Source: an uncultured Gammaproteobacteria bacterium
Lineage (GTDB): Bacteria; Patescibacteriota; Microgenomatia; UBA8517
DNA: 64,000 nucleotides
Assembly: GCA_964599625.1 (NCBI GenBank)
Contig: CAZRGC010000001.1
Location: 244,959 to 308,958 of the forward strand
Direction of reading: 5' to 3'
This document shows positions 4,501 to 46,151 of the stretch, piece after piece. Under the pieces are notes generated by a model that was given only the letters and a program-made list of their open reading frames with translations, was not told where the DNA came from and made no database searches. Positions within the stretch are counted from its first letter, which is position 1. Each line of letters starts with the position of its first letter. Both the position numbers and the translations under genes were made by a program.

Positions 4501-6667
4501 GACAACATGGACAGTTGCTGCTGTTGCCAACACAACCGACACCAAAGTGGGTCAGACAACCAGCGAAATTGTGGTTACCAAAGACGTGATAGTGAGACCG
4601 ATATTGCCCAATATAATGAGGCTTGGTGACAACATAGTTATATCTGCATTGATACAAAATTCTACAGATGCTGATAAAAACTTTGACATAGACCTGAAGT
4701 TTGACTCGGGTGAGGTGCTTTCAAGATCGTTCAAAAATGTTCAAGTTGGTTCGGGTAGCGTTGAACGTTTTGCTTGGGAGATAAAACCCTCCAAGGAGTC
4801 AGAGGGTTCCAGTCTGGAGATTTCCGCCAAAGCCACAGATAATTCAGAAGCTCAGGACACAATTATTTCCAAAGTTGCAGTGATCCCTTTTGGATTTTTT
4901 GAGAATTTTGCAGAAACTGGCGAGGGCAATAAAAATTTTAAGGTCAGTCTATCTTCAAATATATCCAAAACAAAATCAGATATCAGATTGTCGCTTTCAC
5001 CTTCGATATTGGGAACTTTGCCAACAGCAATGAAATATTTGGTGAATTATCCGTATGGTTGTACAGAACAGATAACCAGTCGGTTTGTACCCGCAATTAT
5101 TGCCAAAGCAAATCAACAGCTATTTTCTGAAGCGCTCCAAGACAAAGATGTGAATGAAATGATTGAGACCGGTGTTGCCAAATTGCTTAATTCTCAGATG
5201 GGTAATGGCGGGTGGACCTGGTGGTTTACGGGCAACGCAGATCCGTTTATCACTTCATACGTTGCTGAATATTTGTCATATGCAAACAAACTTGGATATA
5301 AAGTTGATAAAAATGCGATGAATAGGGTTAAGGGGTATTTGGCAAGCAAGACCTATTATGACTACAAACAGCAGAAAGAAGTTAGTTTTACTGACGCCGA
5401 GTTAACTGCCAAAAATTACGGGCTCGTGATGTTGGGAGAAACGAAAAATTTGTCCAAAGTAAATTTGGATAACCTTCAACCGGACATGTTGGCATTGGCT
5501 GTTATTGTAAACTCAATGTCCGGCAACAAAAATTCCGCAACAAACGGTCTGGATAAACTTATTTCAATGGCTCAAGTTCAGGGCGACACTGTTTATTGGA
5601 ACGAAGGTGACAAAGTTAATTTTGGATCAAAAGACGCCTCGACTGCTTTTGCGATAAGGGCAATAATTGCCTCCGGCGGAGACCGTGAATTAGCTGTAAA
5701 GGCGGCCAGATATTTAGTAAGAAACAGAAAGTCTGATTATTGGTCTAACACTTTTGCAACGGCACAGGTTGTGCGCGCGCTCACAGATCTCTCTAAAACA
5801 GCAGGCGAAGCAAACCCAAGTTTCCTTTACACGGTTACAATGGACGGAAAAGAGTTGGCAAATGGGCAAGTTAAAAATGTCAAAGATACAATTGAAGACA
5901 TTGTGATTGATCCGAACAAAATAAACCAAAAAGGTTCGGATATCAAAATTGTAATGGAAGGCGAGGGTCAGCTTTATTCCACATTGGTTTCCAAATTGTT
6001 TGTCACAGATACAAAAGCAGAACCTGTCAAAAACGAACTTTCAATCAAACGCGAATATATTAACGAGAAGGGCGAAGAGTATGCATTGGCCGTTGGGGAC
6101 AGTGTTGTTGTCAAGCTAACAGTAACAGGTCCGCAGGCGCCAGAGCGTTACGGTGCAATTACAGATGAGCTGCCGTCTGGAATGGTCCCTGTTAACCCTG
6201 GTTTCAAAAACGAACAATACGGGGAAAGCCCGCTGCCAAAGTACTTCTCCTCCTCTTATGTCACTGGAATGGATGTGACCCAAAATGGCGCAGTGCTCTC
6301 TTTGTACACAATAGAGCCTGGTGTAAGTACCTACACATATCGCGCTAGAGTTGTGAGTGCAGGAAAATTCACAGTTCCTCCTGCAACAGTTTCGCTAATG
6401 TACGCACCGGAAATATATGCCAGAACTGGCGTGCAGGTGGTGACAATTGCCAGTGAATCCAAACTGATACCTGCAGCAGCATTGGGAGTTTTTCTTAAAA
6501 AATATGTGGTAAGCATTGTAATTGCAGTGCTGGGAATGATTGGTGTTATATCCCTGGTCATAAAAGCCAAAAAGACAGGGTTTAGTCTAGCCAATCTAAA
6601 AACCAGACTCGCAAAGATCTTCAATAAAAAAAACGACCACCCGCCCATAACCCCTGACGTTCAATGA
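1544..6667 (+). CDS. Bacterial alpha-2-macroglobulin-like protein (1707 aa) with N- and C-terminal TM anchors and an inserted Hint domain
   Basis: Size and domain order match bacterial A2M (YfhM/ECAM-like). The thioester motif YPYGCTEQ is at nt 5057-5071. The post-bait A2M signature TFKDTAYWNPS...LPDNLTTWTVAAVA is present. N-terminal (LFALFLVFVFLVAGL) and C-terminal (VVSIVIAVLGMIGVISLVI) hydrophobic helices flank the protein. GTG start at 1544 follows a GAGGA about 16 nt upstream. Confidence 0.8.
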   Translation: MISPFKYFKTTHSRLFALFLVFVFLVAGLYTKFFQNKLQTEAGYQSPQIFVYGGENSFSAGGLISLASTDEAAVQVGGYNISGSAVIDVYKANKDLLLDYLIHDKEGKQVKSKPDVSKLEFVGTTTHNINTGSYEGSKVPLPLSETGIWYLKVKIGNVNTDAFVLRTGFGVLAKEGDNEFVFWGQDFKTKRSIGSGTISVLNLKDSVSSLYQTDFDNSGLARGNISENADIALAQFGEQLAVVPLNLKYLNVASYKSYVEKARNTNYFVFTDRPLYSPGDKVFFKAVIRNDDDARYTIPSGSAKVKISSGWGEEEFVLEKNYPISPDGTVSGEYSIPADAKLGWYNMQISTGESTTVNWGESHWYNGSVSFDVQFYQKPEYSVDVTTPKTELVAGDMAAFTIEGNYFSGQPMSGQKVKYRVAASDYYDYNYFSDASSLRSAISSEYRYGYYGSHTVLEGTTVLDKNGRKDIEFETKMDFNSGKSQVFTIETTLEDNSQTPSFARRNVLVYAGRYGIYRTDYSYGSKVNTKLDLPVRLYAYDQDASLGNVQLVGKVHWETWEKYTDPNQKYPQYRKVESDLSDIKATTDSSGKAILSFVPEKLGYYRITVQGKDSRDNLIANTFYSYVTDQDQPAFTQGGGEEITVSADKQVYNPGETAKLAIYSKTPDRDVFLSMERGRVNRFQVLHLNDNKSTIDMPVLDTDIPNIFAKVSSFAASALDSNSINIKVSTLSKKVIVDLNFDNKKYAPGDDVNVKVTTKDGLGQPVSADVALWAVDKAIFELSDNTLGDIFENFWNERGNTTQEDHSLEGIVAYSAEGGGCFLPGTKVLMADGSQKNIEDVKKGDLVLTRSSEANDKLVKAKVLSTTKARESGYLTINGTLKVTPNHIIWANGVWREAGSIELGDTLRNSQNQNVLVYSKEWQRYTTDVYNLSVEKYHTYFADGVFVHNQKGDARSTFKDTAYWNPSIKTNASGVANVTFKLPDNLTTWTVAAVANTTDTKVGQTTSEIVVTKDVIVRPILPNIMRLGDNIVISALIQNSTDADKNFDIDLKFDSGEVLSRSFKNVQVGSGSVERFAWEIKPSKESEGSSLEISAKATDNSEAQDTIISKVAVIPFGFFENFAETGEGNKNFKVSLSSNISKTKSDIRLSLSPSILGTLPTAMKYLVNYPYGCTEQITSRFVPAIIAKANQQLFSEALQDKDVNEMIETGVAKLLNSQMGNGGWTWWFTGNADPFITSYVAEYLSYANKLGYKVDKNAMNRVKGYLASKTYYDYKQQKEVSFTDAELTAKNYGLVMLGETKNLSKVNLDNLQPDMLALAVIVNSMSGNKNSATNGLDKLISMAQVQGDTVYWNEGDKVNFGSKDASTAFAIRAIIASGGDRELAVKAARYLVRNRKSDYWSNTFATAQVVRALTDLSKTAGEANPSFLYTVTMDGKELANGQVKNVKDTIEDIVIDPNKINQKGSDIKIVMEGEGQLYSTLVSKLFVTDTKAEPVKNELSIKREYINEKGEEYALAVGDSVVVKLTVTGPQAPERYGAITDELPSGMVPVNPGFKNEQYGESPLPKYFSSSYVTGMDVTQNGAVLSLYTIEPGVSTYTYRARVVSAGKFTVPPATVSLMYAPEIYARTGVQVVTIASESKLIPAAALGVFLKKYVVSIVIAVLGMIGVISLVIKAKKTGFSLANLKTRLAKIFNKKNDHPPITPDVQ
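4004..4390 (+). other. Hint (intein/BIL-like) domain embedded in the A2M ORF, 129 aa, Cys1 ... His-Asn, followed by Gln
   Basis: Intein blocks are readable in the translation: A = CFLPGTKVLMADGS, B = TPNHIIW, F = VYNLSVEKYHTYFADG, G = VFVHN. The next residue is Q (caa at 4391-4393), not C/S/T. No endonuclease domain, so it is mini-intein sized. Confidence 0.7.
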
Positions 6668-7572
6668 GAAAAGTGCAATCACTTTTCTCCACCTCCAGTG
6701 TGAAAAAGGTGGCGGCCTTTGTTATTTTTTTAATCATCATTTTTTGCGTTCCGTATTTTTTGGTTCAGGACAAAAAAGCGTTTACTCAGGAAAAAAAGTA
6801 TAACCAAATAATATATTTTGATCAGGAGGAATTTACGAAAGGTATTTCCAAAGCAGACAAACCCATAGAACCAAAAGACTATGCAATAAGGGGTGGTGTT
6901 GTTCCCCATCATCTTTTGGCGGGATATATAATTGCTGATTTTTTTCAGAAGTTGGCATATCAAAAACCCGGCACAATAATTTTGGTTGGGCCAAACCATT
7001 TGGAAGCAGGTGAATATAAAGTTTTATCCGGCACAAACTCTTGGAATACACAGTATGGCGTTATTGATGTCAACAAAAAAATTGTGGGAGATTTGGTGGA
7101 GAAAAATCTTGTGCAAATTAATGATAAAGTGTTGGAAGAAGACCAGTCGGTGTCCGCCCCCATGACCTTCATCGCATTTTTTATGCCATATGTAAAAGTT
7201 GTACCTTTGCTTCTGAGTTCACGGATGACAAATGATGATTTGATTAGTCTTTCAGACTCCCTCGGCGATTTGTTAAAAGATGAGAAAACTGTATTGGTGT
7301 CGTCGGTAGACTTTTCTCACTATCTAAGCTTTGACGAGGCTCAGGCGCGCGACTTGGAATCTATTACTTCAATCAAAAAATTCGGGTGCCAGAAACTACT
7401 TACTTATGATAGCCAACACATGGATTCTCCTGCTTCGATATGTACTCTTTTATATTCAATGTTAAATATAGGAGCCACAAATATAGAAGTGGACACACAC
7501 GACAATTCTGCAAACATCCAAAAGTCACAAAAAGATAACACCACAAGTTATTTTTCTATATATTTCCACTAA
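6664..7572 (+). CDS. Memo-like / AmmeMemoRadiSam system protein B family protein with N-terminal TM anchor
   Basis: Motifs GVVPHHLLAGY, LVGPNH and SVDFSHY resemble the MEMO1/extradiol-dioxygenase-like family signatures. N-terminal hydrophobic helix present. Confidence 0.5.
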   Translation: MRKVQSLFSTSSVKKVAAFVIFLIIIFCVPYFLVQDKKAFTQEKKYNQIIYFDQEEFTKGISKADKPIEPKDYAIRGGVVPHHLLAGYIIADFFQKLAYQKPGTIILVGPNHLEAGEYKVLSGTNSWNTQYGVIDVNKKIVGDLVEKNLVQINDKVLEEDQSVSAPMTFIAFFMPYVKVVPLLLSSRMTNDDLISLSDSLGDLLKDEKTVLVSSVDFSHYLSFDEAQARDLESITSIKKFGCQKLLTYDSQHMDSPASICTLLYSMLNIGATNIEVDTHDNSANIQKSQKDNTTSYFSIYFH

Positions 7573-31399: not shown

Positions 31400-33166
31400 G
31401 TGATTAATATGAGTAAATTAAATACAAAAATAATTTCAACTGAAGAAGCAGCAAAACTATTGGGTGTTACCAGACAAACGCTTTACAAACTTGCGGACAA
31501 GAAAGAAATTCGCGGGCGGAAAGTTGGCAGGAAGTATAAGTTCATGGAACAAGATGTTTTATCCTACGTGAGTACACATTTTGAAAAAGAAGATGACGGA
31601 TACAGGGAGTGGGAACTCAAGGGAGACTTTGCAACCGAGGGAATTAAAAAGATGGCTAAGCGAACTTTTCAAGAACTTGCCTCCAATATTGAAGAGCTTA
31701 TAGCAAACTCATATGACGCCGACGCTACCAATGTTAAAGTTGTTGTTAATAACGACAAACGAACTTTAAGCATTATTGACAACGGTCTTGGTATGGACGA
31801 GGAAGCCTTGACTTCGTTTGTCGTCTATGGGAAAAGTGATAAAGACTCCAGCTATCATTCACCTAAATTTAAGAGATCTCCAATTGGCGAGTATGGAATG
31901 GGTGGAAAACTAGCCATCACAAATATATGTCGCAAATGCAAGATAATTACTAGGAAAAATGGTCTTGAACATATCTTTAACATGAATAGGGCCGACTTGG
32001 ACAAAGCAAAGTATATTAGCGACCTAAAGAGTAAAGTCATAACAAAGCGGTGTGACCCCACATTTACCGGCACGGAAATATACATGGAAGACTTGTTTTC
32101 GAGAACAATTGACACCGATAGGCTTCAGGAACGTTTTTCTACCAAGATGCCGTTGAGTCAGAACTTTAAAATTGAACTTTTGTTGGTGGAAAATAACGAA
32201 AAAGTTGACTTAGAAATACGTGAGCCAATATTTGATTTCGAAAAAAAGTTCGATTTTGATGACGTTTTGCCCAAGGTTGGAAATGTAAAAATGACTATCT
32301 TTTTTACAAAGGAGCCTATACCCGCAACGAAACAAGGTGTTTGGACAAAAGTTAACGGAAGAATAGTGAATGAAAAAGCCGAATGGTTTGATCTTTTTAA
32401 AGCAACATCAGGTCATAGATATAGGTACAGACTTTTCGGCTATGGCGAAGCAGATGGGTTGAAAGATTATGTAACTTTTTCCAAGAACGATTTTATAGAT
32501 TGCCCAGAATACAATGAATATTGGGAGTTTGGCCACAAAAACATCGTTAAAGTTCAAAACGCATTATTAAAAGAAGACGAAAATGCCAAAAAAGAACACG
32601 ATCGAACAGTGGTGAAGACGGTTGAAAAGGTTGTTAATGAAATAATTTCAAAATTAGATGATCCCCAAACACTTGGCCAGTTGGAAGCACGCATTAAAAA
32701 AGAATTCACCAAGGAAAAAGAAAATGCACCAGAAAATCCTTACCCAAATATTGACGTGATCGAAAAGGAGGCCGAAAAGGTGGCGTCAAATGTAAAACGT
32801 GGAAAGGACAAAAGGGAGAGGAGAAACCAATCAATTGCACCAAGCGATAGAGCTTCGTATTCAGGTAAAAACTATATTATCGTTCCCGTAGACCTTTCTG
32901 AAAATGGTGATATTGTAAAGTTTACAAAAGACAAAAATCTCATTGAAATAAACGAACGCCACCCATTGTATACACGAGCTTCACGCAATAGTTCATTGGA
33001 GGACTTAATAATGAACCTTTCCTTTACCGAAATTGCATATGATTACAGTGATGGAAATTTTGTAAGTTTTGACACTGTATTTAATGAACTTGCAAGAATT
33101 GCATCAAAACATGCCAAGGTGAACGAAGTTTTTGAAATGCCGGCCGACATTCAAAATGAAATCTGA
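31400..33166 (+). CDS. HTH (excisionase/MerR-type) - GHKL (Bergerat-fold, MORC/Hsp90-like) ATPase protein, 588 aa
   Basis: N-terminal EAAKLLGVTRQTLYKLADKKEIRGRKVGRKYKF HTH. N-box ELIANSYDADA, G1 box IIDNGLGM, G2 box IGEYGMGGKLA. Long C-terminal region has a possible transducer-like domain and a Lys/Glu-rich segment. ATG at 31409 is the likely start; the track uses GTG at 31400. Confidence 0.7.
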   Translation: MINMSKLNTKIISTEEAAKLLGVTRQTLYKLADKKEIRGRKVGRKYKFMEQDVLSYVSTHFEKEDDGYREWELKGDFATEGIKKMAKRTFQELASNIEELIANSYDADATNVKVVVNNDKRTLSIIDNGLGMDEEALTSFVVYGKSDKDSSYHSPKFKRSPIGEYGMGGKLAITNICRKCKIITRKNGLEHIFNMNRADLDKAKYISDLKSKVITKRCDPTFTGTEIYMEDLFSRTIDTDRLQERFSTKMPLSQNFKIELLLVENNEKVDLEIREPIFDFEKKFDFDDVLPKVGNVKMTIFFTKEPIPATKQGVWTKVNGRIVNEKAEWFDLFKATSGHRYRYRLFGYGEADGLKDYVTFSKNDFIDCPEYNEYWEFGHKNIVKVQNALLKEDENAKKEHDRTVVKTVEKVVNEIISKLDDPQTLGQLEARIKKEFTKEKENAPENPYPNIDVIEKEAEKVASNVKRGKDKRERRNQSIAPSDRASYSGKNYIIVPVDLSENGDIVKFTKDKNLIEINERHPLYTRASRNSSLEDLIMNLSFTEIAYDYSDGNFVSFDTVFNELARIASKHAKVNEVFEMPADIQNEI

Positions 33167-33989
33167 AAACATAGTTAAAAAACGAAAAAAGTACCGATTT
33201 ATAAACAGAAAACATTATCAGCCATCCGAGGTTGACAAAGAAAGGATGCGGTTGGTTAAGCGCCTTTACGACGAATACGGGACACTTAGTAAGGTTGGTA
33301 GCTTGTTGAAACTTACGCGCGAACGAGTTAGGCAGCTTTTGAACAAGGGGGAAAAATACAAACTGTTTACATATGAGTTAACAAGGGATAGGGTTTTGGG
33401 TGAAGCTGTAAATAGAATAAGTAAGGAACGGTTGAGGGATCTGATTTTTACTACTAAAAACCAATTTGATATATCTTCAATCTTGGAAATAGATATGCAC
33501 CTCCTTCAAAGGTTGATGAAATATTACAATATTGACCTGGAGTCATATAAGCAGGATGCAAGGTATAAAAAATGTATTTCTCAGTATTCAGAGATGGTTA
33601 GTCAGATTGGTTATCATCCTTCAACAACGGTTATGCAAAGGAACAAAGAATGGAGAAAGATTTGGGTAAAAATCGATAGGTTATGGGGAAGCTTCGACAA
33701 CTTTAGGAGGGAATTCGGAATCCAAAAACCAAAACATAAGATGCACCCAAACACTATTGTGGCCTGGCGTTTGAGTAAAGAGAAAAGAATGGCAAAAAAG
33801 AAAGAAAAAGTTAGCAATGTTTATAAACTTGTTAAAAACTCTGGCCCAATAGGTTGTTTGAAGATATCCAAACAGACTGGTTACAGGAGACAAAACGTAA
33901 ACATATACTTGAATCAGTTAATTAGCTCAGGAGTAATCCAAAGGATCGGCGAAGGAGTGAAGACACTTTATATCCCTGTAAGCAATTAG
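33132..33989 (+). CDS. Putative DNA-binding regulator with sigma-70 region-4-like HTH and C-terminal winged helix
   Basis: TLSKVGSLLKLTRERVRQLL resembles the sigma region 4 HTH. C-terminal VYKLVKNSGPIGCLKISKQTGYRRQNVNIYLNQLISSGVIQRIGEG is MarR/ArsR-like wHTH. Start may be MKSENIV at 33156. Overlaps the GHKL gene's end. Confidence 0.5.
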   Translation: MKCRPTFKMKSENIVKKRKKYRFINRKHYQPSEVDKERMRLVKRLYDEYGTLSKVGSLLKLTRERVRQLLNKGEKYKLFTYELTRDRVLGEAVNRISKERLRDLIFTTKNQFDISSILEIDMHLLQRLMKYYNIDLESYKQDARYKKCISQYSEMVSQIGYHPSTTVMQRNKEWRKIWVKIDRLWGSFDNFRREFGIQKPKHKMHPNTIVAWRLSKEKRMAKKKEKVSNVYKLVKNSGPIGCLKISKQTGYRRQNVNIYLNQLISSGVIQRIGEGVKTLYIPVSN

Positions 33990-39122: not shown

Positions 39123-39587
39123 CTAAAACTTCCAACCTTCGTTTTTGAAGAAGTCAAATCGATTGAAACATTCAATTTTTTCCTGTTTACAAACAAATGG
39201 AATCTTCGTCTTTAATGAATTTTCTGAGTATCTCTCATCGCTAATCATGCTTAACTTATCGACTTTTGCAAGTGCAATCAAATAAGGGTCAGCTTGGTCA
39301 TTGGGATTGTTAACATCTACAAGATTAGGATATTTGTTAATTATCAATTTGGCTTCAACAACAATGTCAGGCTCTAATGTTTTTCGATATAGTGATTTAT
39401 ACTTTCCAACCCATTTTTTGAGCTGATCAACTTTCGCTGAGATTTCATCAACAACAGCATCACAAATGATTATTTTACCACTAATTATCGCTTCATCCAG
39501 CTTATTCCAAAAAGATGGAAAGTAGTCAAATGGAGTATTATTGGCACAGGTTATTAGAACACTAGAATCAATCAAATACTTTTTCAT
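39123..39587 (-). CDS. DUF4411-like PIN-fold protein (putative nuclease/toxin component)
   Basis: Starts MKKYLIDSSVLI with acidic residues spaced as in PIN-like domains. Overlaps the upstream ImmA gene stop by 4 nt (ATGA coupling). Confidence 0.6.
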   Translation of the reverse strand: MKKYLIDSSVLITCANNTPFDYFPSFWNKLDEAIISGKIIICDAVVDEISAKVDQLKKWVGKYKSLYRKTLEPDIVVEAKLIINKYPNLVDVNNPNDQADPYLIALAKVDKLSMISDERYSENSLKTKIPFVCKQEKIECFNRFDFFKNEGWKF

Positions 39588-40735
39588 AATCTAGCTTCCA
39601 GTTTGGTTAACGTTTCACTTTTTATACTTAAATAATCAAGTGCCTCGCTGTAGTCGATCCTATTAATTCTGTAGGCATCAAGTATGTTTTCGACAAAGGA
39701 CCTACTATTATTTTTCAAATATTTAATGTAAAAATTTCCACCCTTTGCTTTCGGTTTTTCTCTATAGTTATTTTTAAACTTATGATTATGTAGTTCAAAA
39801 ATGTCCTTATTTATTTTCTTATTAATGAGAAGTCTTCTAAGAACAACTTCTCTACTTACATTAAATACTTTCCCTAATACTTCTAAGTCCGTATCAAAGT
39901 TGCTGAAGTCTAAATCTAACGTCAGAAGTTTTTGATTCAAAATATTAGTTGGGACTAAAACAGAACCAGCTATATAATTGCAAGCAACTTCAACCCTGTC
40001 GTTAGATTGAAAATTGAGAACATTATTTTCGTCAGAAATTGCGTCCTTGCCGAAAATAAAATGTGCAAGTTCATGAATTAGCGTGAAGATTCTGGGATTC
40101 GGGTAGTCATTGGTGTTGAGGACAATAACAGGTGCGGCATCATCATAAATTGCGAAACCTTTAGCTTCAACTGTGGGGAATCCTAACTCAAGAATGTAAA
40201 TACCTTTAGCTTCAACTATCTTTTTCCAATAATTAAGTTGATCGAATGCACCTTTATTTCTCGTTACATCATCAAAATTTACCTCTAATAATTTAAGGAT
40301 CTTTTTACCGATTTCCTCATAACTGTTAACGTTGCTTAACTTTCGTAACTCATTAACAAATTTATTATCACCATCACCAAAGACGTCCTTAGCAATATTT
40401 TGAATTCTCACAGCCTTTCGTATCGCAAGTATGGTATCAGGGGTAAATTCACCACTGTGAAGATCAATTAACTTCCTAAATTTGGCAGGTATTTTTTCAG
40501 ATGGTTCTTTATCGAGTAAAAAAACTACAGAAGGTCGTTTATACACTTTTGCCAAAAGCCTTAGATTGGCTATCGGTACTTCTTCTTCACCATTTTCCCA
40601 AGCAAGTAATTTGTTGCTGTCGATTTTTAACTTTGTGGCCGCTTGTTGTTCAGTTAGGCCCAAGGTCTTCCTAGCCCATTTTAGTAGAACGGGATTGATT
40701 AACATCTCGCTAGTTGCACCCATTTTGTCCACCAT
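39584..40735 (-). CDS. XRE-family HTH fused to ImmA/IrrE-family zinc metallopeptidase (COG2856)
   Basis: N-terminal LLKWARKTLGLTEQQAATKLKIDSNKLLAWENGE is the HTH_XRE segment. The HExxH IHELAHFIFG sits in the ImmA/IrrE-like core. Confidence 0.8.
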   Translation of the reverse strand: MVDKMGATSEMLINPVLLKWARKTLGLTEQQAATKLKIDSNKLLAWENGEEEVPIANLRLLAKVYKRPSVVFLLDKEPSEKIPAKFRKLIDLHSGEFTPDTILAIRKAVRIQNIAKDVFGDGDNKFVNELRKLSNVNSYEEIGKKILKLLEVNFDDVTRNKGAFDQLNYWKKIVEAKGIYILELGFPTVEAKGFAIYDDAAPVIVLNTNDYPNPRIFTLIHELAHFIFGKDAISDENNVLNFQSNDRVEVACNYIAGSVLVPTNILNQKLLTLDLDFSNFDTDLEVLGKVFNVSREVVLRRLLINKKINKDIFELHNHKFKNNYREKPKAKGGNFYIKYLKNNSRSFVENILDAYRINRIDYSEALDYLSIKSETLTKLEARL

Positions 40736-40896: not shown

Positions 40897-40970
40897 TGGA
40901 GCGGGATACGGGAGTCGAACCCGTTTTTATACCTTGGGAAGGTATCGTTAGACCGTTTAACTAATCCCGC
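40897..40970 (-). tRNA. tRNA-Gly (anticodon CCC), CCA encoded
   Basis: Reverse complement GCGGGAT-TA-GTTA-AACGGTC-TAAC-G-ATACC-TTCCCAA-GGTAT-AAAA-ACGGG-TTCGACT-CCCGT-ATCCCGC-T-CCA folds as a canonical cloverleaf. Confidence 0.8.
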
Positions 40971-41037: not shown

Positions 41038-44000
41038 ATGGATGTTTTGGAAAAACCCTTGTTTATGAAGCGCGAAAGGGTGGTGATAGACTCCAAAGTC
41101 GAAGTTAAGTATCCCGAAAAAACCTGGTCTGTGGAGCAGTCGTATAGGGATATATATCAAAATCATTTAGACGCACAAGTGAAACGAAGTGTGGACGGAC
41201 TGTTGGCCGATGTTTCTGGTGCGGTTGACGGTGACACGGAAGCTGTGCTGCAAAACGACAGTCTAAGAAAAGTTGCCTACGAATATCTTGCCACAAAAGG
41301 CCACACACCAAGAGAGATGCGTGAGCAAATGGTTGATTTTCTTACCCAAAACATCACGGGTAAAACCAAGAGGGAACAATCTGAACTTGCAGAAATAGTT
41401 GAAAACCACAACATTCTTCTTCCTAAAGTCGAAGTCCTGGCAAGGGATGACCATGGAAACGAAAGCTGGATTGATAAAGATACTTTGGAATTGGACCCGC
41501 TTAGGGATTTGCGGATTATCGGGTTTAGGATAAGCGATGACGGCGAAGGATACGACGCAAACCTTAAAACAATTTTTTACTCATCCGGCAAGGATTCCCT
41601 TGACCAGGTGGGTAAATTCGGTGAAGGCGGAAAAATGAGCGAAATTCTTTTGCAGCAAAAAGGTTTCACAATAGAATCACGGTCTGCATATTCATATGAT
41701 GACAAAGAAGGGCATCATGACATGCTTTGGAAAGGGCGCCCCAGAGTGTCCAAAGAAGGCTCAATGGAACTTCATGTCACCCAGGTGGAACTATCGGCCC
41801 CGATTCCCAAAGGATCAGTTACGGAGGTTGTCTTTCGCGGTCCAGACATCGAAGATCAAGACGTAAAACAAATCACGGAATGTGTTAAATCTTTGGGGCA
41901 ACCTCAAATAATTTATGACAAACATAGGCGCGCGGGAGATTGGTTTTATTATTCCTCGTATGACCCTGCTAAGCCACTTGTTGGTGTGAGCAGGGATTAT
42001 GATGCCCTAATGGTTCAGGGAATTAGAGTAGTGCCCGTAAACACCGAAAGCAATTTACTTTTTGGTTATAGCACCTTTGACAAGAATGCTCTTAATGCAC
42101 GCGACAGGAATAAATACACCCCTGAATTTTTGGAATCGGTGAAAGACTTCTGGCTGCATGCGCCGCGGCACACTATTAAGTTGTATTTTGACGCAATGGA
42201 ACCAAAAAATGGTAAAAAGGTTTTTAATTCATTTGAGCAGGGAGTTTTTAAACACCTGCTGACAATGTACCCACCCGAGGATGGAGGAAGCCCTACACAT
42301 GCGGAACTTCAAAAATTCCGCAAGAGTGTTCTTGCAGAAGTTTTGGAAAGAACAAAAGGCAGTCATTTCAAAAGATTGTACTTTGCAACCGGAGATGAAA
42401 GACATGATTTTGGATTTTATCTGGATTCTAATGTTATTGTTGTAGATCCGCGCAGATGGGGTTTGGATTTTGAAGAAGATTTTTTGGCGGAGGAGCTGGG
42501 TAATCGGTTTGTATCCCGGGATGAACTCAGGAAAAATTTAAGAAGACACAAGGGGTGGGAAAATTCAGTTGAGTTGAGTGACGAAGAAAAGCTAAATGCA
42601 GAAGTCTGGTTTGACAATATAAAGGAGTTTGTCTTTTCGCAGATCGAAGGTAAAGATGATGAACTTTTTGGCGGCAGATTTGTTTTTGCCAAGTTTGTTA
42701 ACGGGGGAGACTTGGTTAGAGTTGAAAAAGAAGGCGGAGACGAACTGACAGATGACTACTACCATAACAACTCAGAAATGCTGGTAATAAATTGGGAATT
42801 GGCTAAAACTTTTCATGACCCGGAAGCATTGAAAAGATTGGTTGCAGTTTACATTATGGCCCAGGACGGATATCTGAATTCAAGCTTCCACTTTGGGGGA
42901 CCTCAGGAGACTGCCAACAAGTTTATTCAAAAAAGGTGGGAGGGTGTTGTTGATTACAAAAAAGCCGAAATAAATCATAGAGTAGACCCGGAAGAGTTTA
43001 TGCGGATGTTTGAGGCTTTGTGGTCCAGAGAAACTGATGAATCGGTTTTTGCGTTTAATACTTTCAGAAATCTGTCGGAGAGGGTTGTTGATACAGGTGA
43101 TATAGATGACGGACTTTTTCTCCTAAATGAACACAAGGATGTTGATCCAAGAATTATTGCAGTACTCACACAAAATGTATTTAGAACAAAAGATGGTTTT
43201 GCCCGGTATGTGGCGGAAGAAGGCTCGTACAAAGTCGAGCTTTTTGGGTTTGATGATATGCAGCTAATATCGGAAAAAGGCGGAAACAAAACTTACTACT
43301 ACAAAGATCATGTATTTATGGAACTTCCCGAATTTGATTATGTTAAGTATAAAAAAGATATTGTCTACAGACACGACAAAACACTTTACAGGTCGTCACC
43401 CGAAAATGTAATTGAATGGGAGGTTGAATCCAAAAAATATCTTAAATTTGGCGAAGGTTTTTGCTACGCAAGAGTTGGGCATATTAGTTTTGCACAGGAG
43501 CAAATTGACGATATTGTCGGAAATTTGAAAGTTGTTGACAGAAATAGCCAAACTTTAAAACAAACGGAACTTCTGGACGGGCATATTGACACTTCGGTTC
43601 CCCTTAAATACGGCAAAGGCAATTGGGATAAACCTGTAAGATTTTTTGAGGATGTTGTTCAAAATCATTTGAACGCGGGTAAGGTTGAAATCAGATTTCT
43701 ATTAGAGAGAAATGGCGAAAATGTTTGGGTTGAGGCGGCAGAGCTTTCTGATAGAGACTTGATTTTGGGCATAAAGTTTGAGGATGATGGACGGGGTTAT
43801 GCACCGGAAAGCCTGGAGAGGATGGGCAGGTCCGAAAAAGACAGTCCCTTGGACGAAGGTAAATATGGTGAGGGAACCAAAATGTTAATGGCTGCGGCAT
43901 GCAGAAATCAGATTGGTCTGGTTTTTGACTCTTATTGCGTCCGAAACGGAGAAAAAATAAGTTGGCAGGCAACAGCCGAAACGGGCACACGGCAGATTGT

Positions 44001-45150
44001 CGAAAAAGGCGGGGTGACAGATGTAAATATGGCAGGATTTGATTTGCAGTCAACTGGTGCAAACAAAAATACTTCTGCGACAACAATATATTTTAAAGAC
44101 TTAGAGTCCGATTTTTATAAAAAATGCATGGAAGTTGTGGATCCCAGGGCTGAAAACGGCGGGCTATCTAGATATGTAAGGACACTTGCCGGTGGAGTTG
44201 GAGTTTTGCATTCGGTAGGGCCTGTAAAAGTTTTGGCAGACGAAAAAGGCGATGTCTACGAAAACGGAATACTAATGAGTACAGAGTCAACTGCTTTGGG
44301 CAGTTTGGATGTTCCGGACATTTCGGCAAACAGGGAACGCGACACAATAAAACCGGAAAGATTGAAACAATATGTTGATTTTCTGATGTCACACACCGGT
44401 GATCCTGTTTTGGTTGAAAAGGTTCTAGAAAGGATTGTGAAAGGTGGTATTTATGATTACCAGGACATAAGTGATATTTTTAACAACATAGAAGGCACCC
44501 CGCTGAATATCGGTGTTTGGAAAGAAGTTGCGCACGAAAAGTTTGGTAATGTGATTATTTTCAATGGAATAATTGTTCCGGAGTCTAAAAGATATTTAGA
44601 GTACCACGGATACGACACAATAATTTACGCATCTGGCTCAAAGGGAAAGGAAAGGTTGGCAAAGGCATGTTTTCCGAGTGTCAAAGAGCTGATAAAAAGG
44701 AGTAAACTTGAACCTGTCATAATACCCGAACCAACAAGACAAAAAGTTGAGGCTGTTGTTGACACGCTTGCAGATAAAGTTTTGGAAATAATTGACCAAG
44801 GGGGATTGGCGGAGGCAACAAACAGACAGTTTGTGGCACTTCTTAGAGATAAAAATAGGCTGCATGAAACTATTGAATACTCCAAATTGGACCCGTTCAT
44901 TTTGGGTGAAGCCAAAGGCGAAATGAAGACTGTGATAAGCGAATACCTGCTTCACAATACACACGACTTAAACATGGTTCTTTTGCATGAGTGGGCACAT
45001 CATTTGAGCGGGGGAAGCGATCTGGAGCCAAAGTTTGTTGCAACACTTCTGGCGATAGGTTTGGGTATTAAACCAGTACCCGTAAATACGGCAAACCCGT
45101 CACCTGCAAAGAATTACAGACGTAGTAGAAGAAGGAAATCTAACAACTGA
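41038..45150 (+). CDS. Giant hypothetical protein (1370 aa) with two degenerate GHKL-ATPase-like modules and a C-terminal HExxH motif
   Basis: Module 1 has N-box-like DIYQNHLDAQ, then ISDDGEGYD and GKFGEGGKMSE. Module 2 has VVQNHLNAGK, then FEDDGRGYA and GKYGEGTKMLM. These match the order N-box, DxGxG, GxxGxG of Bergerat-fold ATPases. C-terminal LLHEWAHHLSGGSD. Confidence 0.6.
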   Translation: MDVLEKPLFMKRERVVIDSKVEVKYPEKTWSVEQSYRDIYQNHLDAQVKRSVDGLLADVSGAVDGDTEAVLQNDSLRKVAYEYLATKGHTPREMREQMVDFLTQNITGKTKREQSELAEIVENHNILLPKVEVLARDDHGNESWIDKDTLELDPLRDLRIIGFRISDDGEGYDANLKTIFYSSGKDSLDQVGKFGEGGKMSEILLQQKGFTIESRSAYSYDDKEGHHDMLWKGRPRVSKEGSMELHVTQVELSAPIPKGSVTEVVFRGPDIEDQDVKQITECVKSLGQPQIIYDKHRRAGDWFYYSSYDPAKPLVGVSRDYDALMVQGIRVVPVNTESNLLFGYSTFDKNALNARDRNKYTPEFLESVKDFWLHAPRHTIKLYFDAMEPKNGKKVFNSFEQGVFKHLLTMYPPEDGGSPTHAELQKFRKSVLAEVLERTKGSHFKRLYFATGDERHDFGFYLDSNVIVVDPRRWGLDFEEDFLAEELGNRFVSRDELRKNLRRHKGWENSVELSDEEKLNAEVWFDNIKEFVFSQIEGKDDELFGGRFVFAKFVNGGDLVRVEKEGGDELTDDYYHNNSEMLVINWELAKTFHDPEALKRLVAVYIMAQDGYLNSSFHFGGPQETANKFIQKRWEGVVDYKKAEINHRVDPEEFMRMFEALWSRETDESVFAFNTFRNLSERVVDTGDIDDGLFLLNEHKDVDPRIIAVLTQNVFRTKDGFARYVAEEGSYKVELFGFDDMQLISEKGGNKTYYYKDHVFMELPEFDYVKYKKDIVYRHDKTLYRSSPENVIEWEVESKKYLKFGEGFCYARVGHISFAQEQIDDIVGNLKVVDRNSQTLKQTELLDGHIDTSVPLKYGKGNWDKPVRFFEDVVQNHLNAGKVEIRFLLERNGENVWVEAAELSDRDLILGIKFEDDGRGYAPESLERMGRSEKDSPLDEGKYGEGTKMLMAAACRNQIGLVFDSYCVRNGEKISWQATAETGTRQIVEKGGVTDVNMAGFDLQSTGANKNTSATTIYFKDLESDFYKKCMEVVDPRAENGGLSRYVRTLAGGVGVLHSVGPVKVLADEKGDVYENGILMSTESTALGSLDVPDISANRERDTIKPERLKQYVDFLMSHTGDPVLVEKVLERIVKGGIYDYQDISDIFNNIEGTPLNIGVWKEVAHEKFGNVIIFNGIIVPESKRYLEYHGYDTIIYASGSKGKERLAKACFPSVKELIKRSKLEPVIIPEPTRQKVEAVVDTLADKVLEIIDQGGLAEATNRQFVALLRDKNRLHETIEYSKLDPFILGEAKGEMKTVISEYLLHNTHDLNMVLLHEWAHHLSGGSDLEPKFVATLLAIGLGIKPVPVNTANPSPAKNYRRSRRRKSNN

Positions 45151-45672
45151 GTCCAGACTGTGAATTTTTAACCCCGCAGCATTGGCAATTTCTACAATCT
45201 CAGACTTGGATATTCCTTTTTGGAACATGCCACGGCTCTCGCTGGACCAAAAACCGTCTTTGTGTTTTTTCCAATAACCTGCCTCCGCCACTTTTTGCAC
45301 TTCAGATTTTGAACGTGTGAGTAGAACCATTACACCGGATTTACTAAGGTACTTAGACGATTTGGCAAGAACAGAAACACGATCATCTGCATCAGCTAAA
45401 ACGTTAAGAACAAACGCATTAACCACAATGTCAAACTTCCCGTAAGGTTTTTCCGAAAACCCGAATGGTGGGTAAGGATCGTACCCGACCGCGTCGAATC
45501 CAAGATTTTGATAATAAGGAATATCAATTCCCTTTCCGCAACCGTAATCCAGAATACGCCTGGCACTTATCAGTTTGGCAAAACCTGTCTCTGTGACAAA
45601 TCTTGCAACAACTGACGGACCCCGTCTACCTGGAACAGTCCGTTCCGGATGATATTCAAACTCACGAGTCAT
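45100..45672 (-). CDS. Class I SAM-dependent methyltransferase (190 aa)
   Basis: Motif I ILDYGCGKG and post-I FDIVVNAFVLNVL. Its 3' end overlaps the giant gene's 3' end by 51 nt (convergent). Confidence 0.65.
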   Translation of the reverse strand: MTREFEYHPERTVPGRRGPSVVARFVTETGFAKLISARRILDYGCGKGIDIPYYQNLGFDAVGYDPYPPFGFSEKPYGKFDIVVNAFVLNVLADADDRVSVLAKSSKYLSKSGVMVLLTRSKSEVQKVAEAGYWKKHKDGFWSSESRGMFQKGISKSEIVEIANAAGLKIHSLDSVVRFPSSTTSVILCR

Positions 45673-46151
45673 TATCTTGGTAGTGTTAGTACGTTCCCAG
45701 GATGAATACTGTTGGGGTTAACCAACTTGTTTGCTTTTGCAATTTCCACCCATTTGTACCCGTCACCATATGATCTGACTGCAATTTTCCAAAGACTGTC
45801 ACCTTTTTCAACTGTGTATGTGTCTTTTGATATTGCTGTTTGTGTGCTGGTTTGCGAAATTGTGTTGGTTGCTGTTGGTTTTTTTGCAGCAGCTTCCGGG
45901 ATCATCAACTTTTGACCGACTTCAAGCTTTTGGCTTGTAAGTTTATTGGCAGAGTAAATATCAACCCAGTTGTAACCTGAGCCGTATGAATCTTCTGCAA
46001 TCGACCAAAGTGTTTCACCTTTTTTAACAACATATTCTCCAGAAACTTCGGTTTTGGTGTCGGTGTTGGTAACTATTTCTCCGTTTTTGTCTTTGAAATA
46101 ATTAACCACAAGGATTCCCGTTACGATAATTACCAATGCACCCAAAAACAT
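45672..46151 (-). CDS. LysM-domain protein (two LysM repeats) with N-terminal TM anchor
   Basis: YVVKKGETLWSIAEDSYGSGYNWVDIYSANKL and YTVEKGDSLWKIAVRSYGDGYKWVEIAKANKL. Confidence 0.75.
   Translation of the reverse strand: MFLGALVIIVTGILVVNYFKDKNGEIVTNTDTKTEVSGEYVVKKGETLWSIAEDSYGSGYNWVDIYSANKLTSQKLEVGQKLMIPEAAAKKPTATNTISQTSTQTAISKDTYTVEKGDSLWKIAVRSYGDGYKWVEIAKANKLVNPNSIHPGNVLTLPR

Follow-up and report, generated by a model that had tools for sequence, protein, structure and literature searches.

A duplicated GHKL ATPase fused to a putative zinc protease in Patescibacteria, a candidate single-chain ATP clamp

GHKL ATPases are normally dimeric, with N-terminal domains that close on ATP, and in Hsp90, MutL, MORC, and type II topoisomerases ATP dimerises the two N-terminal domains into a closed clamp. 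The GHL proteins used for comparison here (Hsp90/TRAP1/GRP94, MutL/MLH1/PMS1, MORC2/3/4, SMCHD1, and GyrB/ParE/Topo II/Topo VI-B) are homodimers joined via a C-terminal dimerisation domain. Repetition of such modules within one chain is exemplified by sacsin, a eukaryotic protein of 4579 aa that carries repeated Hsp90-like 'SRR' supradomains together with DnaJ and HEPN domains. Fusion to an effector is exemplified by paraMORC and VcSduA, which join a GHKL(+S5) ATPase to a hydrolytic effector at the C-terminal end of the chain, an effector thought to be under the control of the ATPase (PMC2292703, PMC12137116). MORC and paraMORC genes are found in operons with restriction-modification (RM) components, namely methylases, SF2 helicases, and endonucleases (PMC2292703).

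For the protease part, the comparison set comprises the minimal zincins, that is, M48 (HtpX, BepA), WLM/Wss1, SprT/Spartan, and the minigluzincins (proabylysin, projannalysin, and selecase). In M48, the third zinc ligand is a distal Glu, tens of residues after the HExxH motif, while in SprT/WLM proteins it is a His and activation is DNA dependent. An ATPase and a zincin share one polypeptide in FtsH (AAA+ ATPase plus M41 HExxH protease), which offers a functional analogy only, as FtsH is a membrane-anchored AAA+ hexameric unfoldase whereas the protein described here is soluble and uses GHKL modules. To our knowledge, the classical energy-dependent proteases (Lon, FtsH, Clp, HslUV, and the proteasome) are all AAA+ driven.

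The gene analyzed here lies in a stretch of 64,000 nucleotides (the window) from an uncultivated, small-genome bacterium of the candidate phyla radiation (CPR). It starts with ATG and encodes the 1370 aa stated in the original prediction (Table 1). The same prediction placed it 68 nt after a tRNA-Gly gene; the distance is right, to which can be added that the tRNA lies on the minus strand, making the two a divergent pair. The product is acidic (pI 4.6-6.4 per domain) apart from a non-conserved basic tail. This tail is missing from most aligned relatives (P0001 and P0004 stop before it) and is variable where present. A promoter and terminator scan of the locus gave nothing usefully above shuffled controls.

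Table 1. Features of the gene, its product, and the adjoining genes (positions in the window)
Feature	Position	Strand	Remarks
tRNA-Gly(CCC)	40897..40970	-	divergent from the large ORF
Whole gene	41038..45150	+	156 kDa, pI 5.35, 0 predicted transmembrane helices
Module 1, aa 15-375	41080..42162	+	N-terminal beta-hairpin, GHKL ATP-binding domain, small beta-rich second domain
N-box of module 1, D38-IYQ-N42-HL-D45-A46	41149..41175	+	Asp at general-base position, 63/65
Helical insert, aa 47-124	41176..41409	+	module 1 only; poorly conserved
G1, predicted ATP-lid loop, and G2 of module 1	41536..41637	+	lower pLDDT at 178-195
Linker/middle region, aa 376-714	42163..43179	+	mostly helical; three-strand plus helix element near aa 551-611
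Beta-rich domain, aa 715-844	43180..43569	+	pLDDT ~90
Module 2, aa 845-1120	43570..44397	+	GHKL domain and small second domain
N-box of module 2, D872-VVQ-N876-HLNA	43651..43677	+	D872 63/65, N876 65/65
G1, ATP-lid (aa 930-943), and G2 of module 2	43783..43884	+	lid pLDDT <50
Helical connector, aa 1121-1230	44398..44727	+	follows module 2 (model A)
Minimal zincin-fold metallopeptidase domain, aa ~1231-1345	44728..45072	+	three-stranded sheet, active-site helix, C-terminal helix
HExxH...D, H1317-E1318-xx-H1321 ... D1328	44986..45021	+	putative zinc ligands and catalytic base
Basic C-terminal tail, aa 1346-1370	45073..45147	+	non-conserved; holds 51-nt methyltransferase overlap
Class I methyltransferase, 190 aa	45100..45672	-	Pfam Methyltransf_23, E 6.7e-13

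The protein contains two homologous modules, at aa 15-375 and aa 845-1120. The internal repeats noticed in the original prediction are well above chance, as the N-terminal and C-terminal halves match by blastp with an E of 3e-7 across 259 columns, and profiles of the two modules built from 65 relatives align by hhalign with a probability of 100% (E 1e-42, 254 columns). The predicted order of GHKL motifs is likewise kept in both repeats, each of which holds an N-box (RDIYQNHLDA, aa 37-46; EDVVQNHLNA, aa 871-880), a G1 motif (DDGEGY, aa 167-172; DDGRGY, aa 916-921), a G2 motif (GKFGEGGKM, aa 192-200; GKYGEGTKM, aa 941-949), and a GSxT-like match to motif IV (G-T/S-x-h), with G259-S-x-T in module 1 and S1013-x-T1015 in module 2. 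The GHKL N-box pattern E-x-x-x-N-x-x-D is represented by D38-x3-N42-x2-D45 and D872-x3-N876-x2-N879.

Conservation of these residues was counted across 65 diverse relatives at ~20% identity. The N-box Asn, which in GHKL ATPases binds Mg, is present in 65/65 relatives in each module (N42 and N876), as are G192/E196/G197, G941/E945/G946, and the basic residues R357, R1099, and R1101, while the G1 Asp is found in 65/65 (D167) and 64/65 (D916). Overall, motifs II, III, and IV of both modules, including D167xGxG171/D916xGxG920 and G192xxGEG197/G941xxGEG946, are invariant or at least 90% conserved. At the general-base position, four residues before the N-box Asn, both modules have Asp and not Glu in 63/65 relatives. 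With Asp where the canonical residue is Glu, both modules may hydrolyse ATP only slowly or may serve as ATP-binding switches.

The structure was modelled as two separate halves, aa 845-1370 (model A, pLDDT 81.7) and aa 1-844 (model B, pLDDT 85.8). A Bergerat fold, whose absence from either module had been named as the result that would undo the original prediction, is present in the models of both, each of which is a predicted alpha/beta sandwich of the GHKL type. The best Foldseek match is MORC4 (E 5.5e-5), followed by GyrB and MutL, the matches being moderate in quality, with target-normalised TM scores of 0.35-0.38. In structure comparison, the modules align across 190-243 residues with ParE, MutL, and MORC, and their closest fold matches are GHL ATPases, second domain included.

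The likeness to GHL ATPases covers the Bergerat fold and the N-box, G1, ATP-lid, G2, and GSxT motifs. In the GHL subclass, an S5-fold transducer supplies a conserved basic residue to the gamma-phosphate; here too, a second domain comes after the nucleotide-binding domain, and its invariant basic residues, candidates for such a contact, lie roughly as far along the chain as expected. This domain ends in an invariant RDR motif in module 1 (aa 355-357) and an invariant RER motif in module 2 (aa 1099-1101). The G2 pattern G-K-F/Y-G-E-G-x-K resembles that of MORC/Hsp90-type HATPase_c_3 proteins. Unlike the homodimeric GHL proteins, however, the CPR protein has its two modules in one chain, a 78-residue helical insert in module 1, and Asp in place of the general-base Glu, and it has no DNA-gate, endonuclease, CW, or client-binding domains. 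It also falls below every Pfam and NCBIfam gathering score (HATPase_c, 15.9 versus 26.4 bits; HATPase_c_3, 13.5 versus 25), while the cut-off of HATPase_c_3 or HATPase_c is passed by relatives (P0076, 27.8; P0105, 32.5; P0092, 27.0; P0120, 28.3). A faint Pfam MPN635_N match in the precomputed annotations of three relatives was absent in direct hmmscan and was dropped. No sequence-level relationship to sacsin was detected, and sacsin, unlike the CPR protein, has no protease domain. The original prediction had further drawn a comparison with the gene at 31400 in the window, which encodes HTH_17 and HATPase_c_3 domains (E 8.7e-21). This likeness holds at the superfamily level and goes no closer, as the 31400 product aligns with the module profiles across the G1-G2 stretch only, at 1-2 bits.

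The C-terminal HExxH, carried at aa 1315-1326 by the sequence LLHEWAHHLSGG and described at the outset as zinc-peptidase-like, does sit in a predicted zincin-fold domain, where a mixed beta-sheet precedes the active-site helix that bears it. H1317, E1318, H1321, D1328, and F1333 are each invariant in 65/65 relatives, and the sole candidate for a third zinc ligand is the putative one at D1328, +7 from H1321. As in the minimal zincins, the core consists of a three-stranded sheet, the HExxH helix, and a following helix, and the motif 'h-x-h-N-E-x-L-L ... L-x-x-h-h-x-H-E-h-x-H' aligns with Spartan, HtpX, and selecase. In sequence-profile comparison, the domain comes closest to the SprT domain of Spartan (E 0.003), with HtpX (3cqb) at E 0.04-0.1; in fold comparison, M48 and minigluzincins match as well as or better than SprT/Spartan. 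A sequence search of the PDB with the single protein gave nothing, and profiles gave only marginal zincin matches. Membership of M48 (HtpX/BepA) was rejected, as no invariant Glu follows the HExxH and the conserved part ends ~25 residues later, and so was membership of SprT/WLM, as the residue invariant after the HExxH is Asp and not His and there is no Pfam match. The domain differs from M48 and the minigluzincins, with their distal Glu, and from WLM/SprT, with their His, in its putative Asp ligand at +7, and from all of the minimal zincins in being fused to ATPase modules and in reaching no Pfam peptidase cut-off (Peptidase_M48, SprT-like, and WLM were unmatched by the window protein).

An exhaustive HMMER search, from which the extent of the family was taken, yielded 409 cluster representatives. 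About 80 of the 154 listed representatives have 1300 aa or more and the same layout of two modules plus zincin, and a C-terminal HExxH is found in 78/82 long proteins (81 representatives and the window protein); a shorter class of ~1000 aa retains the two modules and the C-terminal HExxH. Full-length homologues share 46-70% identity when close and about 20% when distant. Identity to distant relatives is 26% in module 1, 33% in module 2, and 24% in the zincin but about 10% in the linkers, so that conservation, as far as alignments tell, is concentrated in the three predicted catalytic parts. All family members that can be placed taxonomically are from Patescibacteria/CPR metagenome-assembled genomes, and the representatives are annotated as "hypothetical protein" at most. 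A k-mer-seeded homologue search found six relatives only, to which the 65-sequence alignment as query added none (the related-locus search was seeded with a 7-sequence alignment), and patterns covering roughly a third of the known members matched ten GTDB species representatives. Such rarity speaks against a core role in housekeeping, and the counter-reading raised at the outset, that of a housekeeping protein with wide conservation and a known function, does not describe the family. No family in Pfam, NCBIfam, PADLOC, or PHROGs and no literature account found matches the architecture, which the original prediction had rightly not recognised as a described family, and by its sequence signatures the family appears to be a previously undescribed combination, a tandem GHKL ATPase fused to a zinc protease.

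We regard as established that the module is duplicated, that both copies have the motifs and predicted folds described, that the three catalytic centres are conserved throughout the family, and that no partner gene is conserved. As no neighbour is conserved in 15 independent loci, no transmembrane helix is predicted, and the protein is acidic, we read it as a probably soluble, cytoplasmic, and stand-alone protein. The chances seem to us about even that it is a single-chain, pseudo-dimeric GHL-type ATP clamp that gates its fused zincin protease. In such a clamp, both modules would bind ATP, the N-box Asn, G1 Asp, and G2 glycines being invariant in both, and ATP would, by analogy with the dimeric GHL proteins, bring modules 1 and 2 of the same chain together, with the intervening ~470 residues as permanent tether and clamp body. 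Closing and opening of the clamp could then capture or position a macromolecular substrate and gate the HExxH...D site, the outcome being ATP-regulated proteolysis; we infer all of these dynamic steps. It could further be speculated that the CPR family represents an energy-dependent protease with a GHKL engine and not an AAA+ one, in which an intramolecular ATP clamp feeds or exposes substrates to a minimal zincin, a proposal that is tentative and that we hold to be rather doubtful.

Genomic context bears on two other explanations. The original prediction saw a partner in the convergent class I methyltransferase gene, whose 51-nt overlap with the large gene is confirmed, and a joint action of the two proteins like that of a restriction-modification or defence pair could draw on this adjacency, on the same convergent arrangement in the close relative L022, and on a weak resemblance of the enzyme to Dnd-related and mad2 methyltransferases. 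The partnership does not hold, however: asked whether the methyltransferase is always present near the family, tblastn found it at 0/21 fetched loci with a family member, convergent orientation excludes co-transcription, and the overlap falls in the non-conserved tail. Methyltransferase homologues (85% and 55% identity) always directly follow a LysM gene, the co-directional pair occurring in the window, L022, L023, and L024, the last of which has no family member nearby. As expected of the probable operon, the LysM and methyltransferase ORFs in the window run on the same strand and have base 45672 in common. We assign the methyltransferase to the LysM gene and consider its joint action with the 1370-aa protein, already contradicted, very improbable. 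A single-protein anti-phage or conflict system, with a MORC/paraMORC-like GHKL clamp as the sensor of foreign DNA or of a phage protein and the zincin as the effector that cuts a target of host or phage origin, we consider unlikely, although defence proteins do include GHKL domains with C-terminal effectors, for example paraMORC3-nuclease and paraMORC4-TIR fusions (PMC2292703) and the Shedu protein VcSduA, with a PD-(D/E)xK domain (PMC12137116). The CPR protein shares with these a GHKL ATPase and a C-terminal hydrolytic effector in one chain, but it has two modules where they have one each, and a zincin in place of nucleases or TIR domains. In favour of such a system, the phyletic distribution within CPR is sparse, and some family genes lie close to genes of mobile or defence type: the window carries a tRNA and an HTH-M78/DUF4411 pair, P0004 adjoins genes for a serine recombinase, ParB-methyltransferase, and helicase-nuclease, P0061 a tyrosine recombinase gene, and P0129 an HTH and M78 pair. 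Yet at nine other loci housekeeping functions predominate among the neighbours (tRNA synthetases, FtsZ/FtsA, GTPases, and transporters), and where paraMORC and VcSduA usually lie in RM or defence neighbourhoods, no MORC/paraMORC-style operonic association with RM components is seen. PADLOC-DB 2.0 gave 0 families at E up to 1 for the window protein, PHROGs gave no match, and phage, plasmid, and IMG/VR collections held no relatives. The GC content of the gene is native, whereas the adjacent toxin-antitoxin-like pair is AT-rich; no att-like direct repeats of the tRNA-Gly 3' end occur across 28.5-41 kb; and the gene is syntenic and vertically inherited between two Woesebacteria genomes, its counterpart in Ca. 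Woesebacteria CP066686 having 54.5% identity versus 58-78% for flanking housekeeping genes. Positive evidence for the defence or conflict system first envisaged is thus lacking, and we favour an accessory role in the cytoplasm, as a chaperone-protease or in processing, over one in defence.

The catalytic parts themselves allow other readings. A DNA-associated protease, in which a MutL/MORC/topoisomerase-like clamp encircles or loads on DNA and an SprT/Wss1-like zincin degrades DNA-bound or cross-linked proteins, would suit both the Spartan profile match and the alignment of the modules with DNA-handling GHL enzymes, and a weak SprT-like Pfam match is seen in the relative P0013. The acidity of every domain up to the non-conserved tail, the failure to recognise any DNA-binding domain, the Asp at +7 where WLM/SprT proteins have His, and the equal or better M48 and minigluzincin fold matches all speak against it, however, and we think it quite improbable. 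The Asp in both N-boxes and the sub-threshold Pfam scores might instead be taken to indicate a non-catalytic scaffold or pseudoenzyme, or a GHKL-type protein kinase in place of an ATPase-protease. Invariance of nucleotide- and zinc-binding residues at about 20% identity would not be expected of a pseudoenzyme, though, and with GHL ATPases complete with second domain as the top fold matches and no DHp or other phospho-acceptor domain detected, such readings carry only a slim chance.

If the preferred reading of ATP-gated proteolysis is true, proteolysis would join the list of GHKL outputs (DNA strand passage, mismatch signalling, chromatin compaction, chaperoning, and phosphotransfer), studies of how GHL clamps use ATP asymmetrically would gain a natural single-chain model, and a function would be given to a large, so far unannotated protein of Patescibacteria, a group whose genomes of ~1 Mb rarely spare 4 kb for one gene. 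Under the more speculative reading of a protease with a GHKL engine, the family would form a new mechanistic class of ATP-regulated protease beside Lon, FtsH, Clp, HslUV, and the proteasome, and would be the first GHL clamp built as a pseudo-heterodimer from a single chain. Evolution has apparently fused two GHKL modules and a protease, and the three active centres seem to have stayed intact in hundreds of divergent CPR proteins. Assignment of the methyltransferase to the LysM gene, in turn, removes a false lead.

Between and after the modules, the chain offers fewer landmarks. No specific fold match was found for the beta-rich domain at aa 715-844. The first ~50 residues of the connector align weakly with the stretch after module 1 (hhalign P 0.002). 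The element at aa 551-611 is possibly a degenerate zincin-like fold without HExxH, and Q623, also in the middle region, is kept in 63/65 relatives.

The big gene encodes an acidic (pI 5.35), soluble protein of 156 kDa in which a GHL-type module is duplicated in tandem and no segment looks transmembrane (Kyte-Doolittle score over 19 residues 1.4 at most). Every motif cited by the original prediction could be located in it, and the internal duplication claimed there proved real when the halves were compared by blastp and the modules by profile-profile alignment. In the former, aa 119-373 match aa 872-1117 (E 3e-7) and aa 17-46 match aa 850-880; in the latter, profiles built from 65 relatives align module 1 (aa 15-375) with module 2 (aa 845-1120) over 254 columns (probability 100%, E 1e-42). 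Module 1 is set apart from module 2 by a helical insert of ~78 residues that immediately follows the N-box helix.

Positions of the features discussed (nucleotides of the window, or residues of the window protein where marked aa)
Feature	Position	Strand	Remarks
Big gene	41038..45150	+	ATG start; 1370 aa
tRNA-Gly(CCC)	40897..40970	opposite to big gene	68 nt before big-gene start
N-box motifs	aa 37-46 (module 1), aa 871-880 (module 2)		window protein
G1 motifs	aa 167-172 (module 1), aa 916-921 (module 2)		window protein
G2 motifs	aa 192-200 (module 1), aa 941-949 (module 2)		window protein
C-terminal HExxH motif	aa 1315-1326		LLHEWAHHLSGG; window protein
Methyltransferase	45100..45672	-	190 aa; convergent; overlaps last 51 nt of big gene
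LysM-domain gene	45672-46151	-	base 45672 common to LysM and methyltransferase ORFs
LysM-methyltransferase pair	45100-46151	-	
HTH-M78 and DUF4411 genes	39123-40735	-	overlapping
T-arm-like stem-loop	40777-40795	-	GATGGGAATCGAACCCGTT; ~100 nt past tRNA-Gly 3' end
HTH_17 + HATPase_c_3 gene and the Sigma70_r4/TrmB-like gene after it	31400-33989	+	first protein 588 aa
Alpha-2-macroglobulin gene	1544-6667	+	1707 aa

The window protein scores 15.9 bits against Pfam HATPase_c (cut-off 26.4) and matches no NCBIfam, PADLOC or PHROGs model; four relatives pass the cut-off of HATPase_c_3 or HATPase_c. AlphaFold2 models were made with family alignments in two parts, aa 1-844 (pLDDT 85.8, pTM 0.67) and aa 845-1370 (pLDDT 81.7, pTM 0.65). 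Foldseek against the PDB ranked the MORC4 ATPase top (E 5.5e-5, probability 1.0, 368 columns), followed by GyrB, the MutL N-terminal domain (probability 0.98-0.99) and GRP94. The original prediction would have been refuted by the lack of a Bergerat fold in both modules, an outcome that did not arise. The sole long low-confidence loop within module 2 falls right between G1 and G2, where an ATP lid would be expected. The alignments are longer than a nucleotide-binding domain alone, so each module probably has a second, transducer-like domain as well, at the C-terminal edge of which lies an invariant RDR (355-357) in module 1 and RER (1099-1101) in module 2. The S5 domain of MutL, topoisomerase, Hsp90 and MORC proteins supplies a basic finger (PMC2292703), and these arginines are candidates for a finger of that type. 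Both N-boxes have Asp in place of Glu as the general-base residue in 63 of 65 relatives, which may mean that ATP hydrolysis is slow or that the modules are switch-like.

The domain at the C-terminus belongs to the zincins. A search profile of 25 sequences matched the Spartan SprT domain (E 0.003), HtpX (E 0.043) and selecase (E 0.065), each match spanning a strand, the 'NExLL' and the 'LHExxH' segment. The third zinc ligand is a distal Glu in M48 and minigluzincins and a His in WLM and SprT; here the sole candidate is the invariant D1328, an Asp at +7 and a putative ligand unlike any of these, so that the domain is filed in none of these families. The minimal zincins that the domain resembles are typically latent until activated, as are minigluzincin zymogens and the DNA-activated Wss1 and Spartan, and such latency would fit a gated effector.

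A word-seeded search returned only six relatives: four full-length proteins with 46-70% identity, among them one encoded in a Candidatus Woesebacteria MAG, and a pair of ~1500-aa proteins with ~24% identity. With aa 845-1370 as the query, an exhaustive HMMER search yielded 409 cluster representatives at E <= 1e-3, of which 108 reach E <= 1e-30. Our own domain HMMs were mapped on 154 listed representatives of the 409 and on the window protein; among these, nearly all of the 82 proteins of at least 1300 aa comprise, in that order, module 1, linker, module 2 and C-terminal HExxH, the last falling within the final 260 residues in 78. The matches listed also include a shorter class (~900-1150 aa) with the modules closer together and a C-terminal HExxH in 44 of 54, a few proteins of ~1900 aa and one of 6439 aa. 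This last relative (P0127; NCBI contig, ~96-102 kb) has two copies of the GHKL-like module at ~aa 2444-3155, placing the tandem module inside much larger proteins as well.

In an alignment of 65 sequences (~20% mean identity), the invariant residues are Q41, N42, D45, A46, D167, G171, G192, E196, G197, W231, Y344, D356, R357 and E400 on the module 1 side, N876, G918, G930, G941, E945, G946, S965, R1099 and R1101 on the module 2 side, and H1317, E1318, H1321, D1328 and F1333 in the HExxH domain. Distant members are 26% identical in module 1, 33% in module 2 and 24% in the HExxH domain, against ~10% in the linkers; conservation is centred on the first three. Both sets of nucleotide-binding motifs and the zincin centre are intact and under purifying selection family-wide. 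Source annotations give members no name past "hypothetical protein". Nameable hosts are CPR/Patescibacteria MAGs (Woesebacteria, Parcubacteria, Moraniibacteriota, Paceibacterota, Peribacteria, Shapirobacteria), and other organism names on a few members belong to automatically labelled TPA MAGs.

In locus L022, from a close relative whose methyltransferase is 85% identical, the big gene (2584-6697, minus strand) is split at a run of seven C into ORFs of 638 and 752 aa, owing to faulty assembly or else to a genuine frameshift or pseudogene; the cluster is represented by the 752-aa fragment, and hence the first search gave no 100% match for the window protein. Faint or weak precomputed matches to Pfam PF25856 (MPN635_N, from an uncharacterised Mycoplasma pneumoniae protein) on relatives P0061, P0092 and P0129 (loci L010, L026 and L025) were not reproduced by direct hmmscan.

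Among the closest known things are GHL ATPases and minimal zincins. Single-chain GHKL-effector fusions occur in paraMORC and Shedu-type proteins (PMC2292703, PMC12137116), with a nuclease or TIR domain as effector; Sacsin likewise repeats Hsp90-like modules within one chain, and FtsH offers a functional analogy only. Two GHKL modules together with a peptidase occur in none of these, no model in Pfam, NCBIfam, PADLOC or PHROGs covers the family, and no description was found in the literature searched. The family is one of known folds in a new, conserved architecture, for which we infer a mechanism. The two modules would form within one chain what Hsp90, MutL, MORC and topoisomerases form as an ATP-closed N-terminal dimer, the ~470 residues that connect them (helical regions and a beta-rich domain, aa 715-844) would stand in for the usual C-terminal dimerisation domain, and clamp closure would gate the protease. 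The boldest reading, that of a GHKL-powered, ATP-gated protease, is possible, if less likely than not.

The original prediction envisaged a defence or conflict system, of which the tandem GHKL modules and the zincin stand and the methyltransferase partner does not. The methyltransferase is of class I, SAM-dependent (Pfam Methyltransf_23, E 6.7e-13), and matches NCBIfam dnd_rel_methyl at E 3.6e-13, yet scores far below its cut-off. By tblastn, no copy was found in 21 fetched loci with a family member, and its homologues at 100%, 85% and 55% identity each directly follow a LysM gene of the same orientation. This order is common to the window and metagenomic contigs L022, L023 and L024, the last of which has no family member nearby, and the pair looks like a conserved two-gene unit.

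Judged on genomic context, a defence role is less likely than was assumed. The gene is stand-alone: all-against-all comparison of neighbours at 15 independent loci found no conserved partner, the sole recurrent neighbour being leucyl-tRNA synthetase (3 of 15), and neighbours at nine other loci are mostly housekeeping genes (tRNA synthetases, FtsZ/FtsA, RsgA and YchF GTPases, MgtC, transporters). The downstream side is syntenic with Ca. Woesebacteria CP066686 (LysM, PolX, LemA, MFS, M48, GatCA), where the big protein is 54.5% identical and the syntenic neighbours 58-78%, and the GC content of the gene (41-42%) is that of its surroundings. No relatives were found in phage, plasmid and IMG/VR collections. 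Some copies adjoin recombinases or M78/HTH pairs, and the family is apparently rare in CPR species (ten GTDB representatives matched, by search patterns that pick up roughly one in three known members), both of which make an accessory or conflict role possible.

The HTH-M78/DUF4411 pair upstream of the big gene (35% GC, ~42% nearby) and the 31-34 kb segment (37% GC) look foreign. The HTH + Peptidase_M78 (ImmA/IrrE-like) gene matches the PADLOC RmrA and CapP models (E 1e-12 to 1e-13) and overlaps a PIN-like DUF4411 gene; given the low GC and the place beside tRNA-Gly, they are probably an acquired toxin-antitoxin or defence-regulator pair. The stem-loop that resembles a tRNA T-arm, not called by ARAGORN, may be left over from a tRNA and mark an integration site; a search for att-like direct repeats across 28.5-41 kb found none. 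The 588-aa, paraMORC-like HTH_17 + HATPase_c_3 protein (E 8.7e-21), followed by a Sigma70_r4/TrmB-like protein, is encoded in the ~12 kb (29.3-41.0 kb) that separate the big gene from the conserved DUF2130/Dus genes. The corresponding interval in CP066686 measures only ~2 kb; the variable island seems to lie here and not at the big gene. Elsewhere in the window, a bacterial alpha-2-macroglobulin (MG2, A2M_BRD, A2M, TED, bMG10) has a Hint/intein-like insertion (PT-HINT, Intein_splicing) at ~aa 813-949.
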